Assembly (NCBI GenBank): GCA_038230515.1
Contig: JBBRND010000015.1
Span: 13,694 to 77,693 of the forward strand
Source: Bacteroidia bacterium
Lineage (GTDB): Bacteria > Bacteroidota > Bacteroidia > AKYH767-A > 2013-40CM-41-45
Direction of reading: 5' to 3'
Length of the DNA: 64,000 nucleotides
Part shown: positions 1,920-61,685 of the stretch, piece by piece
How positions within the stretch are numbered: the first letter of the stretch is position 1
Layout: each line of letters begins with the position of its first letter
Made by a program: the position numbers and the translations under genes
The notes under the pieces: generated by a model
Seen by the model: only the letters and a program-made list of their open reading frames with translations
The model's database searches: none
What the model was told of the DNA's origin: nothing

Positions 1920-3308
1920 ATGAAAGCGATCTTAAGAAAACTGGCAAAGAAGGATGTGTACGACAGCATTCCGTACGATGATTTGATACTGAAACAGCGT
2001 TTCGCACTGTTCCGCATCTTCACCTTCACAGGTTTCCTTGCCAGCGTTGCCGTTGCCACACAAATCTTAACTGCATTTGAAGGATCAGGTTCAGGCCTCA
2101 TTGCATACCTTCTCTTTGGATTGGCAGGAGTGATGGTAATCAATTATTTCATGGTGCGCGATTACCTAAAATTACCGATAGCATACATGATTACGTTGAT
2201 GGCTGCATTCCTCATGCTGCATTTTCAATCGTACACTTCAGGTGGAATACGAAACTCAGGAACGATGTATCTTGCTGTGGTGATGTTGTCGGCATTTATG
2301 ATGTTGGGAACAAAGGCAGCGAAATGGTTTACGGCATTGGTGCTTGTTCACTTTGTTTATTTATTCTGCATTACTGAATATACAGATTGGACTTCTTATA
2401 GTTTATTTCAGAATGACGGACATCTGATCAATCAGGACTTTCTTACTACTGCAATTCTTGCCTTCTTCCTTATCGCTGCACAAAGTAATTATCTGCATAG
2501 TGGGAAGAATGTGGTGATCGAGCGCATCACTGAGCAAAAGGATGCACTTGAAATAAGTAACAGACGCTTGCAGGAATATACTACTACACTTGAGAAAACA
2601 AATAAAGAACTCGACAAGTTTGCATCCATTGTATCGCATGATCTGAAAGCTCCACTGCGTGCAATTGGTAACCTTGCTGACTGGATTGAGGAAGATGGTG
2701 GACCAACATTTACTCCTGAAGTACGCACAAACTTCAACATGATTAAGCAACGGATTAAACGGATGGAAGATTTGATTCAGGCGATTCTTGATTACTCAAA
2801 AGCGGATAAGCGCATGGGTGATGAAGTTAAAGTTGACACAAATGAGTTGGTGAAAGAAACTGCTGACTTTATTGGTTTGCCTGCACATGCAAAACTTCAC
2901 ATCGCAGAAAACATGCCTAACATGGTAACTGATAAAACTCGTTTGAGCCAGGTGTTCTCTAACCTTATTGGAAACGGTGTAAAATATAATGACAAGGAAA
3001 TTCCTGAAGTGACAGTATCATCTGAGACGCATGACAATGGTTGGACATTCTCTGTTAAAGATAACGGTCCGGGTATTGATCCGAAGTTTCATGAAAAGGT
3101 TTTCGTGATTTTCCAAACACTTAACCGTAGAGATGATGTGGAGAGCACAGGCGTTGGTCTTGCCATTGTAAAGAAAATTATAGAAGACCAGGGCGGCAGT
3201 ATTTGGATTGAAAGTGAACCGGGACAGGGCGCGGATTTTAAATTCTTTTGGCCTAAAGTGAAAAAGGTAAAAGATTCTGCATTAATCGCAGCTTTGCTTA
3301 TCGTGTAA
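1920..3308 (+). CDS. Membrane-anchored sensor histidine kinase.
   Basis: The N-terminus is hydrophobic with multiple TM segments. It has an H-box (FASIVSHDLKAPLRAI) and an HATPase region (GNGVKYN, DNGPGID, GVGLAIVK). Confidence 0.85.
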   Translation: MKAILRKLAKKDVYDSIPYDDLILKQRFALFRIFTFTGFLASVAVATQILTAFEGSGSGLIAYLLFGLAGVMVINYFMVRDYLKLPIAYMITLMAAFLMLHFQSYTSGGIRNSGTMYLAVVMLSAFMMLGTKAAKWFTALVLVHFVYLFCITEYTDWTSYSLFQNDGHLINQDFLTTAILAFFLIAAQSNYLHSGKNVVIERITEQKDALEISNRRLQEYTTTLEKTNKELDKFASIVSHDLKAPLRAIGNLADWIEEDGGPTFTPEVRTNFNMIKQRIKRMEDLIQAILDYSKADKRMGDEVKVDTNELVKETADFIGLPAHAKLHIAENMPNMVTDKTRLSQVFSNLIGNGVKYNDKEIPEVTVSSETHDNGWTFSVKDNGPGIDPKFHEKVFVIFQTLNRRDDVESTGVGLAIVKKIIEDQGGSIWIESEPGQGADFKFFWPKVKKVKDSALIAALLIV

Positions 3309-3900: not shown

Positions 3901-4620
3901 ATGAAAAAAATAGAAAAGAAACATCCACTTGCTATCCGCTGGTTTCACTGGATAAATTTTCCGGTGCTGTTCGTAATGATCTACAGTGGCATTCTTATTT
4001 ACTGGGCAAACGATGTTTATTCCATCCAGGCGGGACAGAAAGTATTCTTCAAGTTCTTCCCCGAAGGTTTTTACAAAACACTTGGCATTCCGTTTCGTCT
4101 TGCTGAAGGTATGGCGTTGCACTTTTTATTTATGTGGATCTTTTTTCTGAACGGATTGGCATACATCACCTACACACTTGTATCAGGAGAATGGAGATGT
4201 CTTTTTCCGAACCGCCATTCGTTTAAGGAAGCGTGGTTTGTGTTGCTGCATGATTTGCATTTGAGTAAACGAAAACTTCCCATTAAAAAATTTAATGGTG
4301 CGCAGCAGATTGCTTACACCGGCATCATCATCATGGGCATTGGTTCAATTCTAACTGGGTTGACGGTTTACAAACCGACACAGTTTTGGTGGCTCACAAA
4401 AATACTTGGAGGATATGAGTGGGCGAGGGGAGAGCATTTCATTCTCACTATCGGGTATGTTTTATTTTTCTGCGTTCACATTGCGCAGGTGGTGCGGGCG
4501 GGGTGGAATAATTTTCGCGCCATTGTTACGGGTTGGGAAGTGGTGGAAGAAAAGAAAGAGGAGGAAACTATTTTGATTGACGGTAGAAGAGAAACAGTAA
4601 ACACTGAAGACAATGAGTGA
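3901..4620 (+). CDS. Di-haem cytochrome b-like membrane subunit (MsrQ/YedZ or PhsC/cyt b561-like).
   Basis: Contains the RWFHWINFPVLFVMIYSGILIY motif, several TM helices and conserved His residues. It overlaps the start of the downstream molybdoenzyme by 8 nt. Confidence 0.55.
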   Translation: MKKIEKKHPLAIRWFHWINFPVLFVMIYSGILIYWANDVYSIQAGQKVFFKFFPEGFYKTLGIPFRLAEGMALHFLFMWIFFLNGLAYITYTLVSGEWRCLFPNRHSFKEAWFVLLHDLHLSKRKLPIKKFNGAQQIAYTGIIIMGIGSILTGLTVYKPTQFWWLTKILGGYEWARGEHFILTIGYVLFFCVHIAQVVRAGWNNFRAIVTGWEVVEEKKEEETILIDGRRETVNTEDNE

Positions 4621-8016: not shown

Positions 8017-8178
8017 CTTAATAGTTTTTTTAAATTTTAAATGATAAGTGATTTATGAATTAGCGCTGTAAATCTAAAAATAAATCATTTTCACTTTTAC
8101 AAATGTTGATAAATATTTTTTGATGAAACTGTGGCTATAAGCAGAAAAAGGTTTTTATCAAGCCATGGGAATACACAG

Positions 8179-8405
8179 CTATGCAGATAGGCAAAACACT
8201 TGCTTTTATCATCTGCACGGCTATGCAGGCAGGCAAAACACTTGCTTTTATCATCTGCACGGCTGTGCAGGTAGGCAAAACACTTGCTTTTATCATCTGC
8301 ACGGCTGTGCAGGCAAGCAAAACACTTGCTTTTATCGTCTGCACGGCTGTGCAGGCAAGCAAAACACTTGCTTTTATCGTCTGCACGGCTGTGCAGGCAG
8401 GCAAA
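8179..8405. repeat. Tandem array A: about 5.4 copies of a 42-bp unit (ctgtgcaggcaggcaaaacacttgcttttatcatctgcacgg). Each unit is internally near-palindromic (gtgcag...ctgcac, gcaa...ttgc).
   Basis: Direct reading gives unit boundaries at 8179, 8221, 8263, 8305, 8347 and 8389. Several overlapping ORFs are open in multiple frames, which is typical of non-coding repeats. The array sits in a divergent intergenic region. Confidence 0.9.
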
Positions 8406-8684
8406 TAGCCAAATTTTAATTTTTTATGGGGTGAGAAGAGAGGAAACTACCAAAAACAGAAATGCCGCTAAAACCAATAAGCGGCATTTCTGAAAAAACA
8501 ATGTGTACTAAACAATGTGTATCGTCATCTTATACAAAATATGATTGCCAGAGGTTACAGGTTTATTCATATCAGCCATCTCAAAATAAAAATCGGGTAA
8601 CCCATTCTAATGCCGGGTTCAAAATTATTTGTCGCTACGGAATAGCTTTTTACATTTGCCGCTCAAACCCAAAATAATATTAAA

Positions 8685-9380: not shown

Positions 9381-11975
9381 CTACTCCTCTTTCTTCTTCC
9401 GCGTTCCTCCTGTTTTTGCCGGTGGAGGAGGTGGTGGTGTGGCTTTCACCACAGTTATCACCAACTCATTTTTCTCTTTATCGAAGTCAGCCATTATGGT
9501 ATCGCCTTCGCCCATTTCTGCTTTAATTATTTCTTCAGCCATTGGGTCTTCCAGATACTTTTGAATGGCGCGTTTCAATGGGCGCGCACCAAAGCTGCTG
9601 TCGAATCCTTTGTCAGAAATATAATCCTTCGCTTCATCACTCAACTGAATTTTGTATCCAAGTTCAGTAACGCGCTTGTAGAGATGCACCAGTTCCACAT
9701 CAATAATTTTGTGAATGTTTTCTTTGGTAAGAGAATTGAACATCACCACATCATCAATACGGTTTAGGAACTCCGGAGCAAATGCTTTCTTCAATGCATT
9801 TTCAATAACACCTTTAGAATGATCTTCCGAGCCCGACATTTTAGTAGCCGTTGCAAACCCAACACCTTGTCCGAAATCCTTCAACTGGCGCGAGCCAATG
9901 TTAGAAGTCATAATAAGAATAGAGTTTTTGAAATCAACTTTTCTTCCCAAGCTATCAGTCAGCGTTCCTTCATCAAGAACCTGAAGAAGCAAGTTGAAAA
10001 TATCAGGATGTGCTTTTTCAATTTCATCAAGCAGCACAACAGCATAAGGTTTGCGTCTCACTTTCTCAGTAAGCTGTCCGCCTTCTTCATAACCCACATA
10101 TCCCGGAGGCGCACCGATGAGGCGGCTAACCGCAAACTTCTCCATGTACTCGCTCATGTCAATACGCACGAGTGCCTCTTCAGTGTCGAATAAATATTTA
10201 GCCAACACTTTTGCAAGTTCAGTTTTACCAACACCTGTAGGTCCGAGGAAAATAAAAGTACCAATCGGTTTATTCGGATCCTTCAATCCAGCTCTGTTCC
10301 GTTGAATCGCCTTTACTACTTTATTGATCGCCTGATCCTGACCAATTACTTTTCCTTTCAACTGATCGCCCATACTAATGAGGCGCGAACTTTCTGTTTG
10401 CGCAACGCGCGTAACCGGAATGCCGGTCATCATGGCAACCACTTCAGCAACGTTTGTTTCATTCACTGTGTAGCGATGGCTCTTGGTTTCTTCTTCCCAC
10501 TGCTTTTTCGCTGCATCTAATTGTTCGAGCAATTGCTTTTCAGTATCGCGGAGTTTTGCTGCCTCTTCATACTTCTGACTGCGCACAACTTTATTCTTCT
10601 CCACTTTTATATCAGCAACTTTCCCTTCAAGATCAAGAATGTTTTTCGGCACATGAATATTTGTGAGATGAACACGGGAACCCGATTCATCCAGCGCGTC
10701 AATTGCTTTATCAGGAAGAAAACGATCGGTGATGTATCGAGCAGTAAGAGTTACACATGCCTTGATTGCTTCAGGAGTGTAATTCACATTGTGATGTTCT
10801 TCATAACGGTCTTTGATGTTATTAAGAATCTCAATACTCTCATCAATAGTTGCCGGTTCAATAAGTACACGCTGAAAACGCCTGTCCAACGCTCCGTCTT
10901 TTTCAATGTACTGACGGTACTCATCAAGAGTAGTAGCACCAATGCATTGAATTTCTCCGCGCGCAAGCGCGGGCTTGAACATGTTCGAAGCATCCAGAGA
11001 ACCTGAAGCACCGCCTGCACCAATGATGGTATGAATTTCATCAATGAATAGAATTACGTCAGGAGATTTTTCCAGTTCATTCATTACTGCTTTCATCCTC
11101 TCCTCGAATTGTCCGCGGTACTTTGTTCCTGCAACGAGTGAAGCAAGATCGAGCGTAACAATTCGTTTATTGAAAAGGACACGCGATACTTTTCGTTGAA
11201 TAATCCGAAGCGCCAAACCTTCTGCAATGGCGCTCTTCCCAACTCCGGGTTCACCAATCAATATCGGGTTGTTCTTTTTTCTGCGCGAAAGAATTTGTGA
11301 TACGCGCTCTATTTCTTTTTCTCTTCCTACAATGGGATCGAGGCGGCCGTCTTCTGCTGCCTTCGTTAAATCGCGGCCGAAGTTATCGAGCACCGGAGTT
11401 TTAGATTTGCTGTCGCTTCCGCCTTTCTTCGTTCCACCACCGCTACCCAGACCGCCTGCGCCACCACCCGCACCACCTTCATCATCTTTTGCATACGGAT
11501 CATCTTCTGCAGGATTGTGAGGTGCTTCACTTTTGAAATTTGATTTCAGCATTTCGAGTTCTTCTTTTACGATGTCGTAAGTAATTCCATACTGATTTAG
11601 AATTTGCGTTGCAATGTTGTCCTCATCTTTTAATATTGAAAGAAGAAGATGCTCCGTTCCGATTACATCGCTCTTGAAAACTTTTGCTTCGAGATAAGTT
11701 ATCTTGAGTGCTTTCTCTGCTTGTTTAGTAAGAGGAATGTTGCTGAGATTGCTCACCGAACCACCACCACCTTTCACGGAATTCTCCACGCTCTTGCGGA
11801 GTTCTGCGAGGTTGATGCCGAGCGAGCGAAGAATTTTCATCGCCATGCCTTCGCCTTCGCGGATAAGCCCTAGCAACAAATGTTCAGTACCGATGAAATC
11901 ATGTGTGAGCCGCAATGCTTCTTCTTTGCTAAATGCGATCACATCTTTTACGCGGGGGGAAAATTTGGCTTCCAT
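9381..11975 (-). CDS. clpC: Clp/Hsp100 AAA+ chaperone, ClpC-like (ATP-dependent Clp protease ATP-binding subunit). ClpB cannot be excluded.
   Basis: Has the Clp N-domain repeats (FIGTEHLLLGLIREGEG twice) and two Walker A motifs (GEPGVGKSA, GPTGVGKTE). A short UVR-like linker (KYEEAAKLRDTEKQL) is present rather than a long ClpB M-domain. Length is 864 aa. Confidence 0.85.
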   Translation of the reverse strand: MEAKFSPRVKDVIAFSKEEALRLTHDFIGTEHLLLGLIREGEGMAMKILRSLGINLAELRKSVENSVKGGGGSVSNLSNIPLTKQAEKALKITYLEAKVFKSDVIGTEHLLLSILKDEDNIATQILNQYGITYDIVKEELEMLKSNFKSEAPHNPAEDDPYAKDDEGGAGGGAGGLGSGGGTKKGGSDSKSKTPVLDNFGRDLTKAAEDGRLDPIVGREKEIERVSQILSRRKKNNPILIGEPGVGKSAIAEGLALRIIQRKVSRVLFNKRIVTLDLASLVAGTKYRGQFEERMKAVMNELEKSPDVILFIDEIHTIIGAGGASGSLDASNMFKPALARGEIQCIGATTLDEYRQYIEKDGALDRRFQRVLIEPATIDESIEILNNIKDRYEEHHNVNYTPEAIKACVTLTARYITDRFLPDKAIDALDESGSRVHLTNIHVPKNILDLEGKVADIKVEKNKVVRSQKYEEAAKLRDTEKQLLEQLDAAKKQWEEETKSHRYTVNETNVAEVVAMMTGIPVTRVAQTESSRLISMGDQLKGKVIGQDQAINKVVKAIQRNRAGLKDPNKPIGTFIFLGPTGVGKTELAKVLAKYLFDTEEALVRIDMSEYMEKFAVSRLIGAPPGYVGYEEGGQLTEKVRRKPYAVVLLDEIEKAHPDIFNLLLQVLDEGTLTDSLGRKVDFKNSILIMTSNIGSRQLKDFGQGVGFATATKMSGSEDHSKGVIENALKKAFAPEFLNRIDDVVMFNSLTKENIHKIIDVELVHLYKRVTELGYKIQLSDEAKDYISDKGFDSSFGARPLKRAIQKYLEDPMAEEIIKAEMGEGDTIMADFDKEKNELVITVVKATPPPPPPAKTGGTRKKKEE

Positions 11976-24095: not shown

Positions 24096-25259
24096 TTACC
24101 GATTTCCTTTTGCCCGATTGTGTGTCTTGCATAACATCTGACAGTTTTTAGAATCAGTAGCGCCACCTTTGCTCCATGCTGCTACATGGTCGGCATCCAT
24201 TTCTACCAGCTTATAAATCTTACCCTTGTTGGCATCATTTCCAAGGGCACAAAGCGGACAGTTTGATTCATCTTTAGTTTCAGCAGTTTTAGTTTGCGTT
24301 GAATAAACAGATTTTTTAGTTGCATCATCAAACACGCGCACTTCCAACAACTTTGTGTCCACCGAGCCGCCAAGGATGAATTCAAAAACACCCTTTCGGT
24401 TTTTGATATACGGATCACCGTAGAGCTTTTTTACTTCGGCTGATACCTTCTTAGGATCATACGCTGTGTTATGATATTCTTCATAGAGGCGACCCCATTC
24501 TAATCCGCACATTTCGCTTTCTACATCTATAAATGTGGTTGAAACCCAATCAATCACTGTGTTGAAATAGGTTTTTAATTCTTTGATGTTTTTGTCTTTG
24601 CGATGGCGGCTCATGTATTCATCAATGCCGCCTTTACTTACCCAGTCTAAGGCGCGTTCTAAAAACGCCTGCCTGTTGGCGCTGCCCTTTATATAGGCGC
24701 TCCATTTTTGGATGTTAGAATTTTGGCTGTTGCTAAACTCCTCTTTGCCGAGTGTGACAAACGGACCGGAATAAATTGAGTTGAGCAATTCCTGATGACT
24801 GAGCGGAACACCTGCAATGTTGATGGTTTTGAACCACTCTTTTATCTCGCTCTCTTCGCCTTCACATTCATAAATGAGAATTTGAGTTTTATAAATCATA
24901 GCCCTTTTATCATCCGCAATACCGTCAAAGTATTGCTCCATGCCGTTTTCATCTTTCACGGCAAATTTGTTGGTGACATAGCGCCCGAAGCTGGTGATGC
25001 GCTGTTGCCCGTCTAACACTTCAAATTTATCGTCACTCACTTTTACGAAATAGATCAAGCCCAAGGGGTAGCCCTTGAGGATAGATTCAATAACCGCTAC
25101 ATCTCTTTTGCCATCGGCATAGATATAGTTACGCTGATACTCCGGCTGTATGGTGAGTTTGCCGCTCAAGCCAAACAGCCCTTTGCCTTCCAATTCATTA
25201 TACTGAAAGCCCTCGCAAATATCTTTGACAGTGATGTTGGTTATTAGTGTTGTTTTCAT
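24096..25259 (-). CDS. DUF262 (ParB/Srx-like, DGQQR motif) N-terminal domain fused to a C-terminal HNH endonuclease. This is the GmrSD/BrxU/SspE-like architecture.
   Basis: The N-terminus has [10 protein letters not shown]...[10 protein letters not shown]. The C-terminus has CPLCALG...[32 protein letters not shown], an HNH His-Me finger with CxxC...C pairs. Its start overlaps the MTase stop by 4 nt. Confidence 0.6.
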
Positions 25260-26356
25260 TTGGTTGTTTTCTTGTGCTTGATAAGTATTCGAGTATAAAG
25301 CCTTTTGTTATTTACATACCCCCTATCTAACTTGCCTTTCCACTTAGAGTTAACTAATTCAGGTAGAAGTCCATCTTTGACATAATAATCGCTTCCAACA
25401 ATTTCAAACTGCTCAGGAGAATATTTATCAAGAAAGCTAATCGGCACACCCATCACACCATCAAAATCACTTGGGATGTATTTGACAAATGGCACTTCAA
25501 TTGCATCATAGTTATCATATTTTTCAAACGGTTTTTTAGTACCAAATTTTATTAGGTCCTCCTTGTTCATTAATGCCAACGGTTGATGACGTCTTCCATG
25601 GTCTATGTTGGTGAACCAACATGAATTTCCAAGTCTTGTATAATCCCCTACATATCCAAGTCGAGCTGCTTTCTGTCGGTCTTTTTCATCAACTTCTGTC
25701 CCTTTTGGAACAGCAAAGACCATGTCGTTAACAAAACCCGTTGCTCCCAACCAAATTTTATTTTCTTTTATCAATGGAAAAACTTCTGTGTAAGTTATAG
25801 CATTTATACTACCAATTATCACAAACTGCTTATTAGCCTCTATAACCCACCCTAAAAAATCACGAAACATTGAGAAAGGCGGATTGGTGATGATGATGTC
25901 GGCTTCATCGCGCAGCTTTTTTATTTCTTTACTATTAAAATCACCATCGCCTTTTAAATAATGCCACTCTAAGTCATCTACATCTATTTTTCCATCACCG
26001 GTGTTGTCGCGGGTGAGGGTGAAAATCTTTCCGTGTTTGGTGGTTTTCTTTTTATCGTATTGCGGAGCGCGTTCTTCAAACAGCGAGGGCTGGTAACCGC
26101 TTTTGTATTTTTTACTTTCGGCAGCATAGCTGGTGCTGATGAGTTTTTTCAAGCCAATGCGCTGAAAGTTTTGAGCAAAAAATTTAGTGAAGTTGCTCCA
26201 CTCCGGGTCATCGCAGGGCAGCAGCACCGTTTTACCACGAAACACTTTAGGGTTGTAATCCAAGTAGGCATTGATCTCTTTTTCTATATCGTGGTATTGC
26301 GTGTAGAACTCATCGTTCTTTGCCTTTTTTGCGTTGGTGAGATTACTGTTTGCCAT
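25256..26356 (-). CDS. N6-adenine DNA methyltransferase, EcoRI-methylase-like.
   Basis: The N-terminus [21 protein letters not shown] resembles the M.EcoRI family start. It has a catalytic IITNPPFS (NPPF) motif and an FxGxG-like AdoMet region. Confidence 0.65.
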
Positions 26357-26505: not shown

Positions 26506-26950
26506 CCGTGAACTTTGCGGACTAAACAGCGAGCAATAATCTCTAAACATTGAACTTTGCGGGCTAAACCGTGAACAAGATTCTCTAAACACTGACCTTT
26601 GCGGGCTAAACCGTGAACAAGATTCTCTAAACACTGACCTTTGCGGGCTAAACCGTGAACAATTTTCTCTAAACACTGACCTTTGCGGGCTAAACCGTGA
26701 ACAAGATTCTCTAAACACTGACCTTTGCGGGCTAAACCGTGAACAAGATTCTCTAAACACTGACCTTTGCGGACTAAACCGTGAACAATTTTCTCTGAAC
26801 ACTGAACTTTGCGGACTAAACCGTGAACAATTTTCTCTGAACACTGAACTTTGCGGGCTAAACGGTGAACAAGTTTCTCTGAACGCTGAACTTTGCAGAC
26901 TAAACGGTGAACAAGTTTCTCTGAACGCTGAACTTTGCAGACTAAACAGC
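26506..26950. repeat. Tandem array B: about 10.5 copies of a 42-bp unit made of two 21-bp half-units (ctaaaccgtgaacaagattct + ctaaacactgacctttgcggg). The sequence drifts progressively along the array.
   Basis: Example units lie at 26564-26584 and 26585-26605. The array occupies almost the whole spacer between the smc stop (27182) and the MTase start (26356). The overlapping 191-aa ORF is a repeat artefact. Confidence 0.9.
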
Positions 26951-41899: not shown

Positions 41900-42673
41900 G
41901 GCAGATAAAGTTTGGTTTTGGTACGTAAATATTTTGTGCGTGTTTTAAAATTGTAAGATTTGCATTAAAAAAATCTTTAGCAAAGATGTTTTTAGCCAAT
42001 GTGGTGCTGCAAATGTGTTGTGCAGAAATGGAAGAAGTTGTTGCAGCAATGAGAAAAGGTGTTGCACAGCGATAAATTTTTTATGCAACAATATGAATCT
42101 TCATTGCCTGAAATGATATGGTAAAAATGAAGTACCCTCCCTGATTTTTGGATTGACGGATGAGATAAAATATAAAGAGGATGGTATTTTTGCCAAGATG
42201 CAATTGATTACTTCTGACGAGTACTTATTTCCTGCACTGATGCGTGAATTTAATGCTAGACTGTAAGTGAAAAGAGAGATGATGGATAAGAATAAAGGGA
42301 AAAAGTATGTTGTAAATTATAAAAGGGATGTTGAGAGAAAGAGATGTCGCGCCTTGCATGATGAAGTGGTGGAATTATCAGGAAGAGGGAAATAGTTTAT
42401 TACTCAAGCCGCATGCTGGGTTGGGTAAGGGCGGTTCGAAAAAAGGGCGCTGGCGCACAGCGATTTTTGGCTGCTTGAAATAGTTGCTACAAAGCGAGTA
42501 CTGATTAAGCTAAACCCGATTGAAAGGAAAAGCCCGCGCTAACGAAGTACTTGCTTAGAAGAGAGGGATGCCGAAACAAGTTCGACATGACAGGGTGAAG
42601 TGAGGCGCGGCTTTGGGATGAAAGCGGGAGGGCAGGGAATTAAAAGCTGGGGAGTGTCTTTTCTAAAAAAAAA

Positions 42674-57340: not shown

Positions 57341-58300
57341 ATGAAAAAAATCGCATTTCTCATTCTTGTTTTTGTTTCCTGCAATTCTTCTCCTGAAAAA
57401 AAAGCAGAAGCAAAAATTCCCGTTGTTGCATTTCTTGATCTGTTACAAGATGAAACATTGGCTCAGGCAAAAAAGGGGTTTTTCGTTGCGCTGAACGACA
57501 GCGGTTTTAAAGAAGCCGATTCAACCCTGCACATCATCTACCGCAATGCGCAGGGCGACCAACCCACGCTTCTGCAGGCATGCGATTATCTGATTTCGCA
57601 AAAACCTGATTTGATTGCAACCAACCCCACGCTTTCAACCATCACTGCAGTTCAACGCACAAAAGATATTCCTGTCTTCATGATGGTTTCTCCGCGACCT
57701 GATCTTGCAAAACTAACCGATGCAAAAGGCAGCGCCCCGCAAAATCTTTATGGCACGTATGAAACACTTGAATACATTGACACTTCAGTAATGCTGATCA
57801 AATCCATTCTTCCCGGTGCAAAAAAAATCGGAACCATCTATAACCAATCCGAGCCGCAAAGTGTGGATGCATTGAACCGGATTGAAAGCGAATGTTCAAA
57901 GCTTGGTTTAACGTTGGAAAAACTTCCTGTCAATAATTCGAATGAAGCGCAGTTGGTTGTTCAGGCATTATTGCGAAAAAAGATTGATGCCTTTTTCGCC
58001 TTGCCCGACAACACCGTTTTTTCTTCCATGGAAGTAATCGTAAAAAGCTGTGATGATTCTAAAGTTCCCGTATTCACCAGCGAGGAAGGATTGGTGAAGC
58101 GCGGAGCAGTTGCCGCTTTCGGTGCCGACATGTATCAATGGGGCTATCAAAGCGGGGCGCAGGCGGCTACCTTTCTGAAAAACAAATCAACCCAAGGATT
58201 GCAGCCGGAAATGGTGAGAGTGAGGAGAAGAGTTTGTAATGAGAAGAAAGCAAAACAGTATGGATTGAAGTTTAATGAAACGTTTGTAGAGGTGAAGTAG
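57341..58300 (+). CDS. ABC transporter substrate-binding lipoprotein (PF04392-like ABC_sub_bind family).
   Basis: Has a lipoprotein signal (LILVFVSC). Shows the family pattern VVAFLDLLQDETLAQAKKGF...NAQGD...DLIATNPT. The cognate permease and ATPase lie downstream at 60780-62431. Confidence 0.65.
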   Translation: MKKIAFLILVFVSCNSSPEKKAEAKIPVVAFLDLLQDETLAQAKKGFFVALNDSGFKEADSTLHIIYRNAQGDQPTLLQACDYLISQKPDLIATNPTLSTITAVQRTKDIPVFMMVSPRPDLAKLTDAKGSAPQNLYGTYETLEYIDTSVMLIKSILPGAKKIGTIYNQSEPQSVDALNRIESECSKLGLTLEKLPVNNSNEAQLVVQALLRKKIDAFFALPDNTVFSSMEVIVKSCDDSKVPVFTSEEGLVKRGAVAAFGADMYQWGYQSGAQAATFLKNKSTQGLQPEMVRVRRRVCNEKKAKQYGLKFNETFVEVK

Positions 58301-58384
58301 AAAATTTTCTGCATCCCTCGCCCTCGCGCAATAAAAAAGTTCCGGAACCGCTTCGGGGTTAGTTTCAGTTTAACTTCGCTATCT

Positions 58385-60046
58385 TTGATGCATAGTACGA
58401 ACCCCATGCGCCTTAAGTATCTTTTTGCATTGCTCATTATTTTTTCGGGAGAGGCGAGAGCGCAGGCGCCAACTATCGAGTGGCAAACTTGTCTCGGTGG
58501 CACCCAGACAGAAGGATTTTTGACCTTCATAAATGGTTTGCAACAAACAATTGATGGAGGATATATAATTGGCTCTAGAACTAATTCCAATGATGGGAAT
58601 GTCTCCGGAAATCATGGAGGAAATTGCGGAGCGGCTTGTAATGATGGATGGGTAGTAAAATTGGATAGTGGAGGGATTATCCAATGGCAAAAATGCTTAG
58701 GTGGAACAAGCGAAGATGTCTTCTCAGCAATTCATGAGACTTTTGATGGTGGCATTATTGTCGCTGGTCAAACAAATTCAAATGATGGAGATGTAAGTGG
58801 TTTGCATTCCGGAACAGGAGGTGATTTTTGGGTTTGTAAATTGGGCAACGTTGGTAATTTACAATGGCAAAAATGTCTTGGTGGTACTGATGACGACTTT
58901 GCATTATCTATTGTCTTATCTCCAGATAGTGGATATCTAATAGCTGGTCAAACAAGCTCAAATGATGGTGATGTAAGTGGAAACCCATTTCCGGGTTCTC
59001 CATTTGCATGGATAACAAGACTTAATGGCAGTGGCAACGTTATATGGCAAAAATGTTTGCCAAATACTTATAATCCAGGAAATGTTTCTGCAACGCATAC
59101 AATTGATGGAGGTTATATAGTAGCATGCACCGGTGGAGGTTTATTGTATCACAACAACTCAAAAGAATACTGTATGTCAAAAGTGGACAGCATGGGAAAT
59201 TTGCAATGGCAAAAATTTTATGGCGGAAATGATAATGATCAACCTAATTGTATCCGGCAAACTCGTGACGGAGGTTTTGTTATGGCGGGTTACACCGATT
59301 CGCACGATGGAGATGTAACTTTTAACCATCGCGATACCACTCTTGGAAGTTTACTTTGGCATGATGAATACTGGATAATAAAAACTGACAGCTCGGGTAA
59401 TTTGCAGTTTCAGAAATCATTAGGAGGTAACTGGAATGACATAGCATATTCAATTGAACAATGTCTGGATGGGGGATACATAATTTCTGGTCAAGCGATG
59501 TCAAATGATGGTGATATTAACAATGGTCTTCATGGGGGAGGAACCTTCGGTGGTCCAGGAGATTGTTGGATTGTAAAATTAGATTCTGCTTTCGGCTTGC
59601 AATGGCAGAAATGTTTTGGTGGTTTTGGCGATGATATTGGCGAAGTAATAAGTCAAACTAGTGATCAAGGGTTTATTCTTAAATCATCCTCATTCTCAAA
59701 TGATGGAGATGTGAGTGGTAATCATGGAAATGGAGACATCTGGATTGTTAAGCTTTCTCCCTCCTCTACAGGATTAACAACTATCAATAACCCAATAACA
59801 GATTTCACCGCTTGCCTAAACAGAACCAATAGAAGTTTAGATTTAAACTTTTACGCCAACGGCAACGAGCATACACAAGTACAACTCTTAGATATAACCG
59901 GCAGAGTGCTGCTCTCGCAACCCCTTGCAGTAACAGCGGGTTTTAATAAACAAGAAGTGCAGGCAGGTCAGCTTGCTGGCGGGGTGTATGTGGTAAGGTT
60001 GGTAACAGAGGGCGGGAGTGTGGTAAAGAAGTTAATTAAGAATTAG
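58385..60046 (+). CDS. Secreted SBBP (beta-propeller)-repeat protein with a T9SS C-terminal sorting domain.
   Basis: Has a signal peptide and about eight repeats of roughly 47 aa (WQKCLGGT..D....DGGYIIAGQT.SNDGDVSGNHG..D.W). The C-terminus is a typical CTD (GRVLLSQPL...AGGVYVVRLVTEGGSVVKKLIKN). Confidence 0.7.
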   Translation: MMHSTNPMRLKYLFALLIIFSGEARAQAPTIEWQTCLGGTQTEGFLTFINGLQQTIDGGYIIGSRTNSNDGNVSGNHGGNCGAACNDGWVVKLDSGGIIQWQKCLGGTSEDVFSAIHETFDGGIIVAGQTNSNDGDVSGLHSGTGGDFWVCKLGNVGNLQWQKCLGGTDDDFALSIVLSPDSGYLIAGQTSSNDGDVSGNPFPGSPFAWITRLNGSGNVIWQKCLPNTYNPGNVSATHTIDGGYIVACTGGGLLYHNNSKEYCMSKVDSMGNLQWQKFYGGNDNDQPNCIRQTRDGGFVMAGYTDSHDGDVTFNHRDTTLGSLLWHDEYWIIKTDSSGNLQFQKSLGGNWNDIAYSIEQCLDGGYIISGQAMSNDGDINNGLHGGGTFGGPGDCWIVKLDSAFGLQWQKCFGGFGDDIGEVISQTSDQGFILKSSSFSNDGDVSGNHGNGDIWIVKLSPSSTGLTTINNPITDFTACLNRTNRSLDLNFYANGNEHTQVQLLDITGRVLLSQPLAVTAGFNKQEVQAGQLAGGVYVVRLVTEGGSVVKKLIKN

Positions 60047-60245
60047 AAATGTTGGCAGCTGTTTCTAAAGCCGGGTGAGCGCGCACAGGCAAACGCGCAA
60101 CACCTGTTGGCACGAAAATCTTCCTTTTATTTGAAACCTAGCAGCGGCTGTGCGAGCTTCCTAACGGAAGGTAGGCAAAACGTCATTTTTTCTTACAACC
60201 TTCGAAATTTGCGAATTTACCTGTAAATCCCGCGATTGATTTTAG

Positions 60246-60655
60246 TTCTCCCGCCATTGTTAGCGACTAAACCACGACTGTTCCCGACCAAACCACGATT
60301 GCTACCTGCAAAACCACGACCGTTGTCGACTAAACCACGACTGTTCCCGACCAAACCACGATTGCTACCTGCAAAACCACGACCGTTGTCGACTAAACCA
60401 CGACTGTTTCCGACCAAACCACGATTGCTACCTGCAAAACCACGACCGTTGTCGACTAAACCACGACTGTTCCCGACCAAACCACGATTGCTATCTGCAA
60501 AACCACGACTGTTGTCGACTAAACCACGATTGTTCCCGACCAAACCACGATTGCTATCTGCAAAACCACGACTGTTGCCGACCAAACATGAATTGTTGGC
60601 GATAAAACATGGAATGTTGACGATCAAACAACGAGTGATTTTTATTAATCCGCAA
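60246..60655. repeat. Tandem array C: about 19 phased 21-bp units with a 63-bp super-period (ctaaaccacgactgttcccga / ccaaaccacgattgctacctg / caaaaccacgaccgttgtcga), degenerating at the 3' end.
   Basis: Direct reading gives units at 60267, 60288, 60309, 60330 and onward. All frames on both strands are open, so the ORFs 60236..60724 and 60217..60627 are repeat artefacts. Confidence 0.9.
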
Positions 60656-60779
60656 TTGTTCCCAGGGGCTTCAGTTGGTTTGTGCGTAGTTATGCATAAC
60701 TCAACTGACGTTTCAATTCTTTAAACTTTTCCCGCATTCACATTCGAACTAATTTCGCTCATCATTTTTCTCAATCAAC

Positions 60780-61685
60780 ATGCAATCAACAGGCGGCATT
60801 CTTACCTTTGATGCCTGCTTCATGAACTTCTACCTCACCGCCATACTTCTCGGTCTCGGGTTTGCATCGCTTGCACTTGGCATTTTTATTTCCATGCGCA
60901 TCTTCAACATTCCTGATATTACTACCGATGGAAGTTTTACGCTCGGTGGTGCAGTCACCGCAGTGCTGCTTTCGCACCAATATTCCTTGCCTGTCATTTT
61001 AATTCTCGCATTTCTTTCGGGCGCAGTTGCGGGTTCGCTCACAGGAATCATTCATACCAAACTAAAAGTGAATGCGCTTCTTGCGGGTATCCTGGTTATG
61101 ACTGCATTGTATTCCGTCAATCTTGCATTAATGGGGCGATCAAACATTCCGCTCATCGGCATCACCACCATTTTCTCCATCGGAAGTTTTTTTGCAAATG
61201 AATCCTCTCAGCAGATTTTCGTTCTCATTCTTTTTCCGGCAATCATCTGGCTCATTATTTCGAAGCTTCTTAAAACTGACTTCGGTCTTGCCATGCGCGC
61301 AACAGGAAATAATGAAAACATGATTCGTGCGTTGGGTGTCAATACAGACCGCATGAAAATAATCGGGCTTGCCCTTGCAAACGGACTCACCGCACTCAGC
61401 GGATTTCTTATCACACAGATACAGGGTTTTGCCGACATCAATATGGGAATAGGAATTGTCATTCTCGGATTAGGTTCAGTCATGATCGGAGAAATTTTCT
61501 CAAAAACATTTCGGATTAAAAATATTTCTATTCAGTTGCTCACTGTTATTGCCGGCAGCATTCTTTTCAGATTGATACTTGCCTTTGCACTATCCATCGG
61601 CATTGATCCGCTGTATCTGAAACTTGTAGTCGCAGTTTTTGTTTTGATCGTTGTAAGCATCCCTAATTTGAAGCGAGCCGAATGA
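60780..61685 (+). CDS. ABC transporter permease (BPD_transp_2-like, partner of the PF04392 binding protein).
   Basis: A polytopic membrane protein of 301 aa. It is translationally coupled (ATGA) to the downstream ATPase. Confidence 0.7.
   Translation: MQSTGGILTFDACFMNFYLTAILLGLGFASLALGIFISMRIFNIPDITTDGSFTLGGAVTAVLLSHQYSLPVILILAFLSGAVAGSLTGIIHTKLKVNALLAGILVMTALYSVNLALMGRSNIPLIGITTIFSIGSFFANESSQQIFVLILFPAIIWLIISKLLKTDFGLAMRATGNNENMIRALGVNTDRMKIIGLALANGLTALSGFLITQIQGFADINMGIGIVILGLGSVMIGEIFSKTFRIKNISIQLLTVIAGSILFRLILAFALSIGIDPLYLKLVVAVFVLIVVSIPNLKRAE

Follow-up and report, generated by a model that had tools for sequence, protein, structure and literature searches.

Array C is a tandem array of 21-bp direct repeats in a 64,000-nt stretch of DNA from an uncultured Bacteroidota bacterium (the window, to which all coordinates refer unless a contig is named). 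It lies within the genes of an ATP-binding cassette (ABC) transporter, all on the plus strand: a substrate-binding protein gene (57341..58300; PF04392, E 1.8e-51) forms the upstream half of a split operon, and a permease gene (BPD_transp_2, PF02653; longest open reading frame (ORF) 60780-61685) and an ATPase gene (PF00005; 61682-62431) form the downstream half. Between the two halves stands a plus-strand gene for a cargo protein sorted by the type IX secretion system (T9SS), with an ORF at 58385-60046 that NCBI calls as 58388..60046 (552 aa). The protein carries a Por_Secre_tail match (E 1e-5), is 100% identical to P0001 over 552 aa and has homologues named T9SS type A sorting proteins; its closest homologue shares 55% identity and is encoded on a contig with a 600-bp gap downstream of the gene. 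Close permease homologues are all 287-288 aa long and begin with the residues MNFYLT, and the ATG at 60822 is thus the most likely permease start, giving a protein of 288 aa; translation of the 14 codons upstream of it (from 60780) is unlikely. With the permease starting at 60822, the gene-free spacer that holds array C runs from 60047 to 60821 (775 bp). Pfam identifies the neighbours of the array as ABC transporter, T9SS cargo and DegT genes, and the Por_Secre_tail and BPD_transp_2 matches confirm an initial annotation of the window that had placed a T9SS cargo gene upstream of the array and an ABC permease downstream.

Structure of array C

We called tandem arrays with Tandem Repeats Finder (TRF) and then printed the units in 21-bp register. 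TRF reports array C both at period 21 (60258-60587, 15.7 copies) and at period 63 (60264-60587, 5.1 copies, 97% matches, score 592), and autocorrelation rises from 0.72 at lag 21 and 0.74 at lag 42 to 0.97 at lag 63, bearing out the 21-bp array with a 63-bp super-period that the initial annotation had described. The core of the array (60264..60587, no strand) consists of 5.1 copies of the 63-bp higher-order unit, and the register print shows that each copy cycles through exactly the three 21-bp variants named there, CTAAACCACGACTGTTCCCGA, CCAAACCACGATTGCTACCTG and CAAAACCACGACCGTTGTCGA. The 63-bp copies differ from one another by five C/T transitions. The decay towards the 3′ end that had also been noticed is equally clear: at 60588..60657 (no strand) the units keep the 21-bp phase and become AAACATGAA, AAACATGGA and AAACAACGA, then TTAATCCGCAATT, and TRF detects this tail at 60573-60630 with a period of 21 and 81% matches. 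On the 5′ side, the register print reveals degenerate units in phase with the core (60217..60263, no strand), and a repeat search extends the family to 60196/60217 at 65-78% identity. The outermost units, 60238-60258 and 60637-60657, are identical to each other at 15/21 positions and to the central type at only ~8/21. As degenerate units stand in phase on both flanks, the array comprises about 20 units over ~60238-60657, in line with the count of about 19 given originally.

A 9-mer core, AAACCACGA, occurs in 15 exact copies that are always spaced by 21 bp, with no further exact copy outside array C within the 64-kb window. This 9-bp core is constant in all three old subunit types, and 8/12 of the remaining positions vary. 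Exact repeats inside the array reach at most ~82 bp, the copies being anchored by variant sites. Two independent Logan contigs (L001 and L002), each from its own sequencing run, begin inside array C at window position 60548 and continue into a right flank that is 100% identical, demonstrating that the repeat is not an artefact of one assembly; the copy number is given as assembled, and these further contigs of the organism break within the array. Higher-order units, a homogenised centre and decayed edges together are the usual picture of a satellite after recent amplification.

Insertion into the transporter operon

We compared the locus with 80 related Bacteroidota loci and with the closest metagenomic relatives, whose permeases are at most 84% identical to that of the window. 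Most of the 80 loci have the substrate-binding, permease and ATPase genes side by side. The gap between the binding-protein and permease genes is only 5 nt in L004 (82% permease identity) and in L085 and L087 (83%), all of which have a DegT gene upstream and DsbD downstream, matching the order in the window. The corresponding interval in the window measures 2.5 kb and is made up of the T9SS gene and the 775-bp spacer with array C. Because the transporter genes are contiguous in relatives, this comparison indicates that the T9SS gene plus spacer is an insertion private to the lineage of the window, in support of the earlier proposal of an insertion within the set of ABC-transporter genes. The binding-protein and T9SS genes stand in the same order on an independent contig of this organism (L084), and the GC content of the inserted segment is unremarkable. 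A different insertion occupies the same binding-protein/permease junction in L005 (JBBRAY010000002.1, 3403-5970; permease 80% identical), where three minus-strand genes encode proteins of 245, 388 and 221 aa whose translations read as methyltransferase-like, glycosyltransferase and SGNH-type hydrolase. Judged from these gene orders, insertions seem to recur at this junction.

Signals in the spacer suggest how the split operon may now be transcribed. A scan for the Bacteroidetes -7-like box (pattern TAnnTTTG; TANNTTTG) identified TATCTTTG at 58380-58387 (plus strand), 0-18 nt upstream of the T9SS start codon, and TACCTTTG at 60803-60810 (plus strand), 12 nt upstream of the permease ATG. The position of these boxes right before the T9SS and permease starts suggests that the two parts of the operon are now under separate promoters, with very short leaders. 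A scan for sigma-70 promoters and terminators gave only a chance-level result, with no convincing intrinsic terminator after the T9SS gene (nothing after 59940). The non-repetitive spacer 3′ of the T9SS gene (60047..60216, plus strand) has no Rfam match. The spacer between array and permease (60658..60821, plus strand) holds, besides the -7-like box, a 14-bp perfect palindrome, AGTTATGCATAACT (60688-60701), found as a self inverted match inside TCAGTTG...CAACTGA (60672-60708); it is a possible operator or hairpin.

Distribution and probable origin of array C

Array C has no counterpart at or near the locus in the 80 related loci or in the closest metagenomic relatives (permease 83-84% identical), and is carried only by independent contigs of the same organism. 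The two-unit pattern AAACCACGAYYGYT-N7-AAACCACGA has no match in viral contigs and a single match in the metagenome collection, which falls in coding sequence for the NRGFGNS tail of an unrelated gut protein, and the array C region gave no blastn match among plasmids or phages. One human gut metagenome contig (L083, 2624-3619) encodes a secreted 331-aa protein with a long low-complexity NRGFGNS-type tail, partly encoded by exact 21-bp repeats that have AAACCACGACTG in common with array C; this overlap is a compositional coincidence, and such heptad tails do exist as real coding sequence.

Array C is probably, although not with high confidence, a recently amplified, lineage-specific and non-coding minisatellite of the variable-number tandem repeat (VNTR) type, with no sequence-specific function indicated. 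Like the intergenic minisatellites and VNTRs of other bacteria (reviewed by Zhou, Aertsen & Michiels 2014, as cited in PMC9426551), it is a head-to-tail array of a 10-100-bp unit (63 bp x 5.1; 21 bp x 15.7) in a non-coding spacer (60046 to 60822), with higher-order units, a homogenised centre and decayed edges; it is also lineage-specific, and short-read assemblies break there. The 21-bp unit would have multiplied first and then diverged into three variants. Slipped-strand mispairing or unequal recombination would recently have expanded the 63-bp triplet, with the older, decayed units remaining at both edges. The 775-bp spacer itself arose when the T9SS cargo gene was inserted between the substrate-binding and permease genes. 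Considered alone, array C is a private and probably neutral repeat that marks where an inserted gene split a transporter operon, and it poses a practical problem for short-read assembly.

Period and predicted curvature of the tandem arrays

The window contains two further long arrays, neither of which has an assigned strand and both of which are unrelated in sequence to array C. Array A (8174..8405; 42 bp x 5.5) lies in a divergent intergenic region, and array B (26509..26947; 42 bp x 10.5, with sub-periods of 21 and 7 bp) separates smc from an EcoRI-like methylase gene and shows a 7/14-bp sub-periodicity in its autocorrelation. The periods of the long arrays in the window are thus 42, 42 and 63 bp, and TRF detects an additional short 21-bp repeat at 42017-42066. 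The initial annotation had tied array C to array B through a shared CTAAACC start and a shared 21-bp phase. The phase stands, but we reject the 7-mer as a true link, as 20-28% of shuffled units match or beat it (a range that also covers the best 13-nt window). The suggested comparison of arrays A, B and C likewise yielded no significant common core, the best 7-mers and 13-nt windows being equalled by 19-28% of shuffled units. The common feature of the three arrays is a period in multiples of 21 bp (21n), with no motif. The annotation had named two sequence outcomes that would count against its proposal, the lack of a supported motif in common and the absence of array C from related genomes, and we observed both.

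The same periods recur outside the window. The metagenome-assembled genome L047 has intergenic arrays at 294-677, 4129-4418 and 10058-10165, listed as 42 bp x 9, 21 bp x 12.5 and 21 bp x 5, and L039 has one intergenic array at 3085-3293 (42/21 bp x 5). The period is therefore 21, 42 or 63 bp in all 7 long arrays of these two genomes and the window (7/7), whose sequences are unrelated, and each array lies 90-250 bp upstream of some gene start. Long arrays in the rest of the 80 related loci have periods of 26, 54 and 101 bp or are 8-based and 7-based. The agreement of seven out of seven arrays cannot be chance. The 21n period of every long array in three genomes is the sole unusual point about array C, and it is unexplained; a search of the literature on 21-bp arrays in Bacteroidetes or Bacteroidota found nothing specific, the closest precedents being the BrickBuilt minisatellite, heptamer direct repeats and the A-tract repeats of the Mannheimia leukotoxin promoter, all compared with array C below. 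The 42-bp unit of the L047 array at 294-677 holds a perfect 16-bp palindrome, TCACAAATATTTGTGA, flanked by CCCCT and CGGGG, which is operator-like or hairpin-forming and in which this array differs from those of the window.

A length of 21 bp corresponds to two turns of the DNA helix. We predicted the path of the arrays with three dinucleotide wedge models (Bolshoy, AA wedge and Olson). In these models a unit of the 21n arrays has a total twist that departs from a whole number of turns by no more than 0.04. No other 232-bp stretch of the window is as curved as arrays A, B and C according to the Bolshoy and AA-wedge models, and array B ranks first for curvature in all three. Array C has one AAA or AAAA tract per 21 bp, and its predicted ratio of end-to-end distance to contour length is 0.55 (Bolshoy), 0.27 (AA wedge) and 0.94 (Olson), whereas the controls average 0.84, 0.85 and 0.97; in the Bolshoy and AA-wedge models, 95-100% of the arrays made from natural 63-mers are less curved than array C. 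When all seven arrays are compared with natural-unit controls of the same period, Fisher's combined test, applied post hoc, returns p values for curvature of 2e-4 (Bolshoy), 1.5e-4 (AA wedge) and 2e-3 (Olson). Natural units repeated at 19, 20, 22, 23, 40 or 44 bp are predicted to be straight. Strong curvature is predicted for most of the seven arrays, and L047 4129-4418 is one without it. With one A-tract for every two helical turns, array C would form an intrinsically bent tract of ~400 bp that would end ~150 bp upstream of the probable new permease/ATPase promoter at the -7-like box TACCTTTG.

Several observations weigh against array C being simply a VNTR-type minisatellite. Copy-number variation is the hallmark of a VNTR, and array C is classed as one from a single assembled copy number. 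Unlike VNTRs as described, these arrays have a period locked to multiples of 21 bp across unrelated sequences, and 21n periods in all seven arrays are not predicted by neutral slippage. The invariant sites of the array C unit are clustered (p about 0.03), which hints at constraint on a recognition motif. The predicted bend is also weaker for array C in the Olson model, in which 16% of control arrays are equally curved.

Alternative readings

It is unlikely, without being far-fetched, that array C and the other 21n arrays are architectural elements, that is, helically phased curved DNA maintained by selection, whose role would be to bind a nucleoid-associated protein or to wrap around RNA polymerase, modulating promoters from upstream or insulating neighbouring transcription units from each other. 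In favour of this possibility are the recurrence of 21, 42 and 63 bp in seven arrays of three genomes despite their unrelated sequences, a modelled twist per unit close to an integer, the position of every array upstream of a gene start, and curvature in excess of same-period controls (Fisher p 1.5e-4 to 2e-3) that off-period units lack. There is also a precedent: the leukotoxin promoter of Mannheimia haemolytica contains ACAAAAAACA A-tract tandem repeats, an example of phased A-tract DNA with predicted curvature (PMC2697988). Like those repeats, array C brings A-tracts into helical phase through tandem duplication upstream of a gene, is species-specific and is predicted to be curved; by contrast, it has one A-tract per two turns and not one per turn, is far longer (~400 bp) and ends ~150 bp from the putative promoter. 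That distance from the -7 box is large for an effect of curvature or of an UP-element. Against an architectural role also stand the absence of any array conserved in relatives, the lack of predicted curvature in L047 4129-4418, and the nature of the prediction itself, which rests on crude models and a post hoc test.

A broader version of this idea seems rather unlikely. Array C would then belong to a class of helically phased satellites, hitherto undescribed, in some uncultured Bacteroidota, with members unrelated in sequence but constrained to periods of 21, 42 or 63 bp (2, 4 or 6 turns). Their curved DNA would have an architectural use, or be tolerated in no other form, both upstream of genes and at junctions of inserted DNA, and might be bound by a lineage-specific nucleoid protein. 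Should the 21-bp rule apply to the whole genome, it would point to selection for DNA shape or to a protein that reads DNA geometry. The 21n arrays would then be a simple natural setting in which to examine the influence of curved or phased DNA on chromatin and promoters in bacteria of a phylum where little is known of it.

We consider it improbable that array C is an iteron-like array, in which sites of a 9-bp core and a 12-bp spacer would titrate or polymerise a regulator, a replication protein or a partition protein. Plasmid iterons and LytTR direct-repeat operators have a core of ~9 bp plus a spacer and a 21-22-bp period that places their sites on one face of the helix, and the 9+12 layout of array C resembles both, a resemblance that serves as a lead only. 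Iterons are 17-22-bp direct repeats spaced at about two helical turns, and in array C an invariant 9-bp core alternates with a 12-bp spacer of variable sequence, giving a spacing of exactly 21 bp; the clustering of invariant positions noted above (p about 0.03) is the one statistical result in favour. However, the 64 kb contain no further copy of the core, other genomes, plasmids and phages lack the pattern, and the motif has no second use elsewhere. The neighbourhood includes no rep, par or LytTR gene, the core has decayed as quickly as the spacer in the units at the edges, and arrays A and B share no significant motif with array C. We rejected iterons proper, as the neighbours of the array include no rep gene and there is no plasmid or phage match. 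The LytTR operator consensus is a pair of 9-bp repeats, [TA][AC][CA]GTTN[AG][TG], with a 12-bp spacer. Array C has the 9+12 geometry, but AAACCACGA and TCGTGGTTT depart from this consensus, the array has ~20 sites compared with 2 (2-7 for iterons and LytTR operators together) and no regulator gene is nearby, and a LytTR operator was also rejected.

A role at the level of RNA is quite improbable. Array C would here act as the 3′ untranslated region of the T9SS gene, loading Rho and terminating transcription before the permease, or would sponge a single-strand RNA-binding protein; a transcript reading through from the T9SS gene would carry a C-rich, G-poor and unstructured stretch. The plus strand of array C contains 35% C and 16% G, a CG skew of 0.37 that lies ~2.7 standard deviations above the window mean. 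Folding energies are no better than those of shuffled sequences, with z of -0.13 for the plus strand and +2.56 for the minus strand (worse than shuffles). The missing intrinsic terminator 3′ of the T9SS gene and the separate -7-like box before the permease would also fit such a role. By contrast, arrays A and B have no such skew on the transcribed strand, so skew is not a shared property, and in array C it follows simply from the repetition of one unit. A structured RNA is ruled out by these folding results together with the lack of any Rfam match in the array C region, either at the gathering threshold or at E<=1.

It is highly improbable that array C encodes a small repeat protein. Two of the six frames are open through the array, one on the minus strand (60217-60627; ...NSRGLVDNGRGFAGSNRGLVG..., heptad N-x-R-G-L/F-V/A-G/D) and one on the plus strand (60236-60724; ...TKPRLFPTKPRLLPAKPRPLS..., repeat T-K-P-R-L-x-P); there is a weak lag-3 autocorrelation, and the secreted protein of gut Bacteroides type with an NRGFGNS tail shows that 21-bp repeats containing AAACCACGACTG can be coding. 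Two open frames are nonetheless what chance predicts for a 63-bp unit ((61/64)^21 = 0.37 per frame). Both ORFs start with TTG and consist of repeats only, neither has a Pfam match or any domain beyond the repeats, and neither is in the gene-call collection, although the neighbouring genes are. The minus-strand ORF has no homologue at E<=1e-3 among 5.8 billion proteins. The plus-strand ORF gave 344 matches in an exhaustive representative search; inspection showed these to be compositional, low-complexity basic xKPRxxx heptad tracts in unrelated proteins or repeat-only ORFs. The C/T differences among copies show no excess of synonymous changes in either open frame. AAA-CCA-CGA is constant in the three old subunit types, third codon positions included, while the other four codons vary, and any constraint would therefore act on nucleotides. 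On the basis of the TTG-only starts, the minus frame without homologues and the low-complexity matches of the plus frame, we ruled out a tandem-repeat protein gene.

Very little probability attaches to array C being the remnant or cargo of a mobile element or an artefact of assembly. The array does occupy the margin of an inserted segment, a restriction-modification-type gene pair adjoins array B, and miniature inverted-repeat transposable elements (MITEs) of Bacteroidota can bear 23-nt minisatellites, as in BrickBuilt of Porphyromonas gingivalis (PMC4596501). Array C resembles BrickBuilt in phylum, in having repeats of ~2 helical turns without spacers, and in its intergenic position tens to hundreds of nt from genes. 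BrickBuilt differs in its leader and tail subunits with inverted-repeat ends and in its 19 copies of the same unit per genome (PMC4596501), whereas array C has no terminal inverted repeats (none in 60150-60750), its flanks are neither common to arrays A and B nor repeated in the 64-kb window, each array has its own unit, and the array C unit is found nowhere else. A BrickBuilt-like minisatellite was accordingly rejected, the unit and flanks of array C being single in the window and its pattern absent from collections. Against an artefact, the right edge is reproduced in two independent runs and the copies are anchored by their variant sites. We also rejected heptamer direct repeats, which comprise the cyanobacterial STRR and TAACTGA repeats of Beggiatoaceae, Cyanobacteria and five Bacteroidetes (PMC4679880). 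Like array C, these are intergenic tandem repeats; they are abundant, with a sporadic phylogenetic distribution that includes Bacteroidetes, and 21 equals 3 x 7, but array C has another sequence, is not just upstream of a start codon and lacks autocorrelation at lag 7 or lag 14; it is array B that shares the 7/14-bp sub-periodicity. A clustered regularly interspaced short palindromic repeats (CRISPR) array is dismissed by a period of just 21 bp and by 12-bp variable parts that are three cycling variants.

Additional features of the window

Upstream of ruvC, a 774-bp gene-free stretch (41900-42673) has the strongest G>C skew of the window (about -0.45), begins with the short 21-bp repeat described above and has no Rfam match. 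To the right of array A, an inverted repeat at 8457-8492 with 13-nt arms, AGAAATGCCGC...GCGGCATTTCT, and runs of A/T at its flanks resembles a minus-strand terminator, yet it has no minus-strand gene upstream. Directly downstream of smc, positions 24096-26356 encode an EcoRI-type adenine methylase and a GmrSD-N/HNH endonuclease, with array B between smc and the methylase gene, and this segment may be a small inserted defence island.

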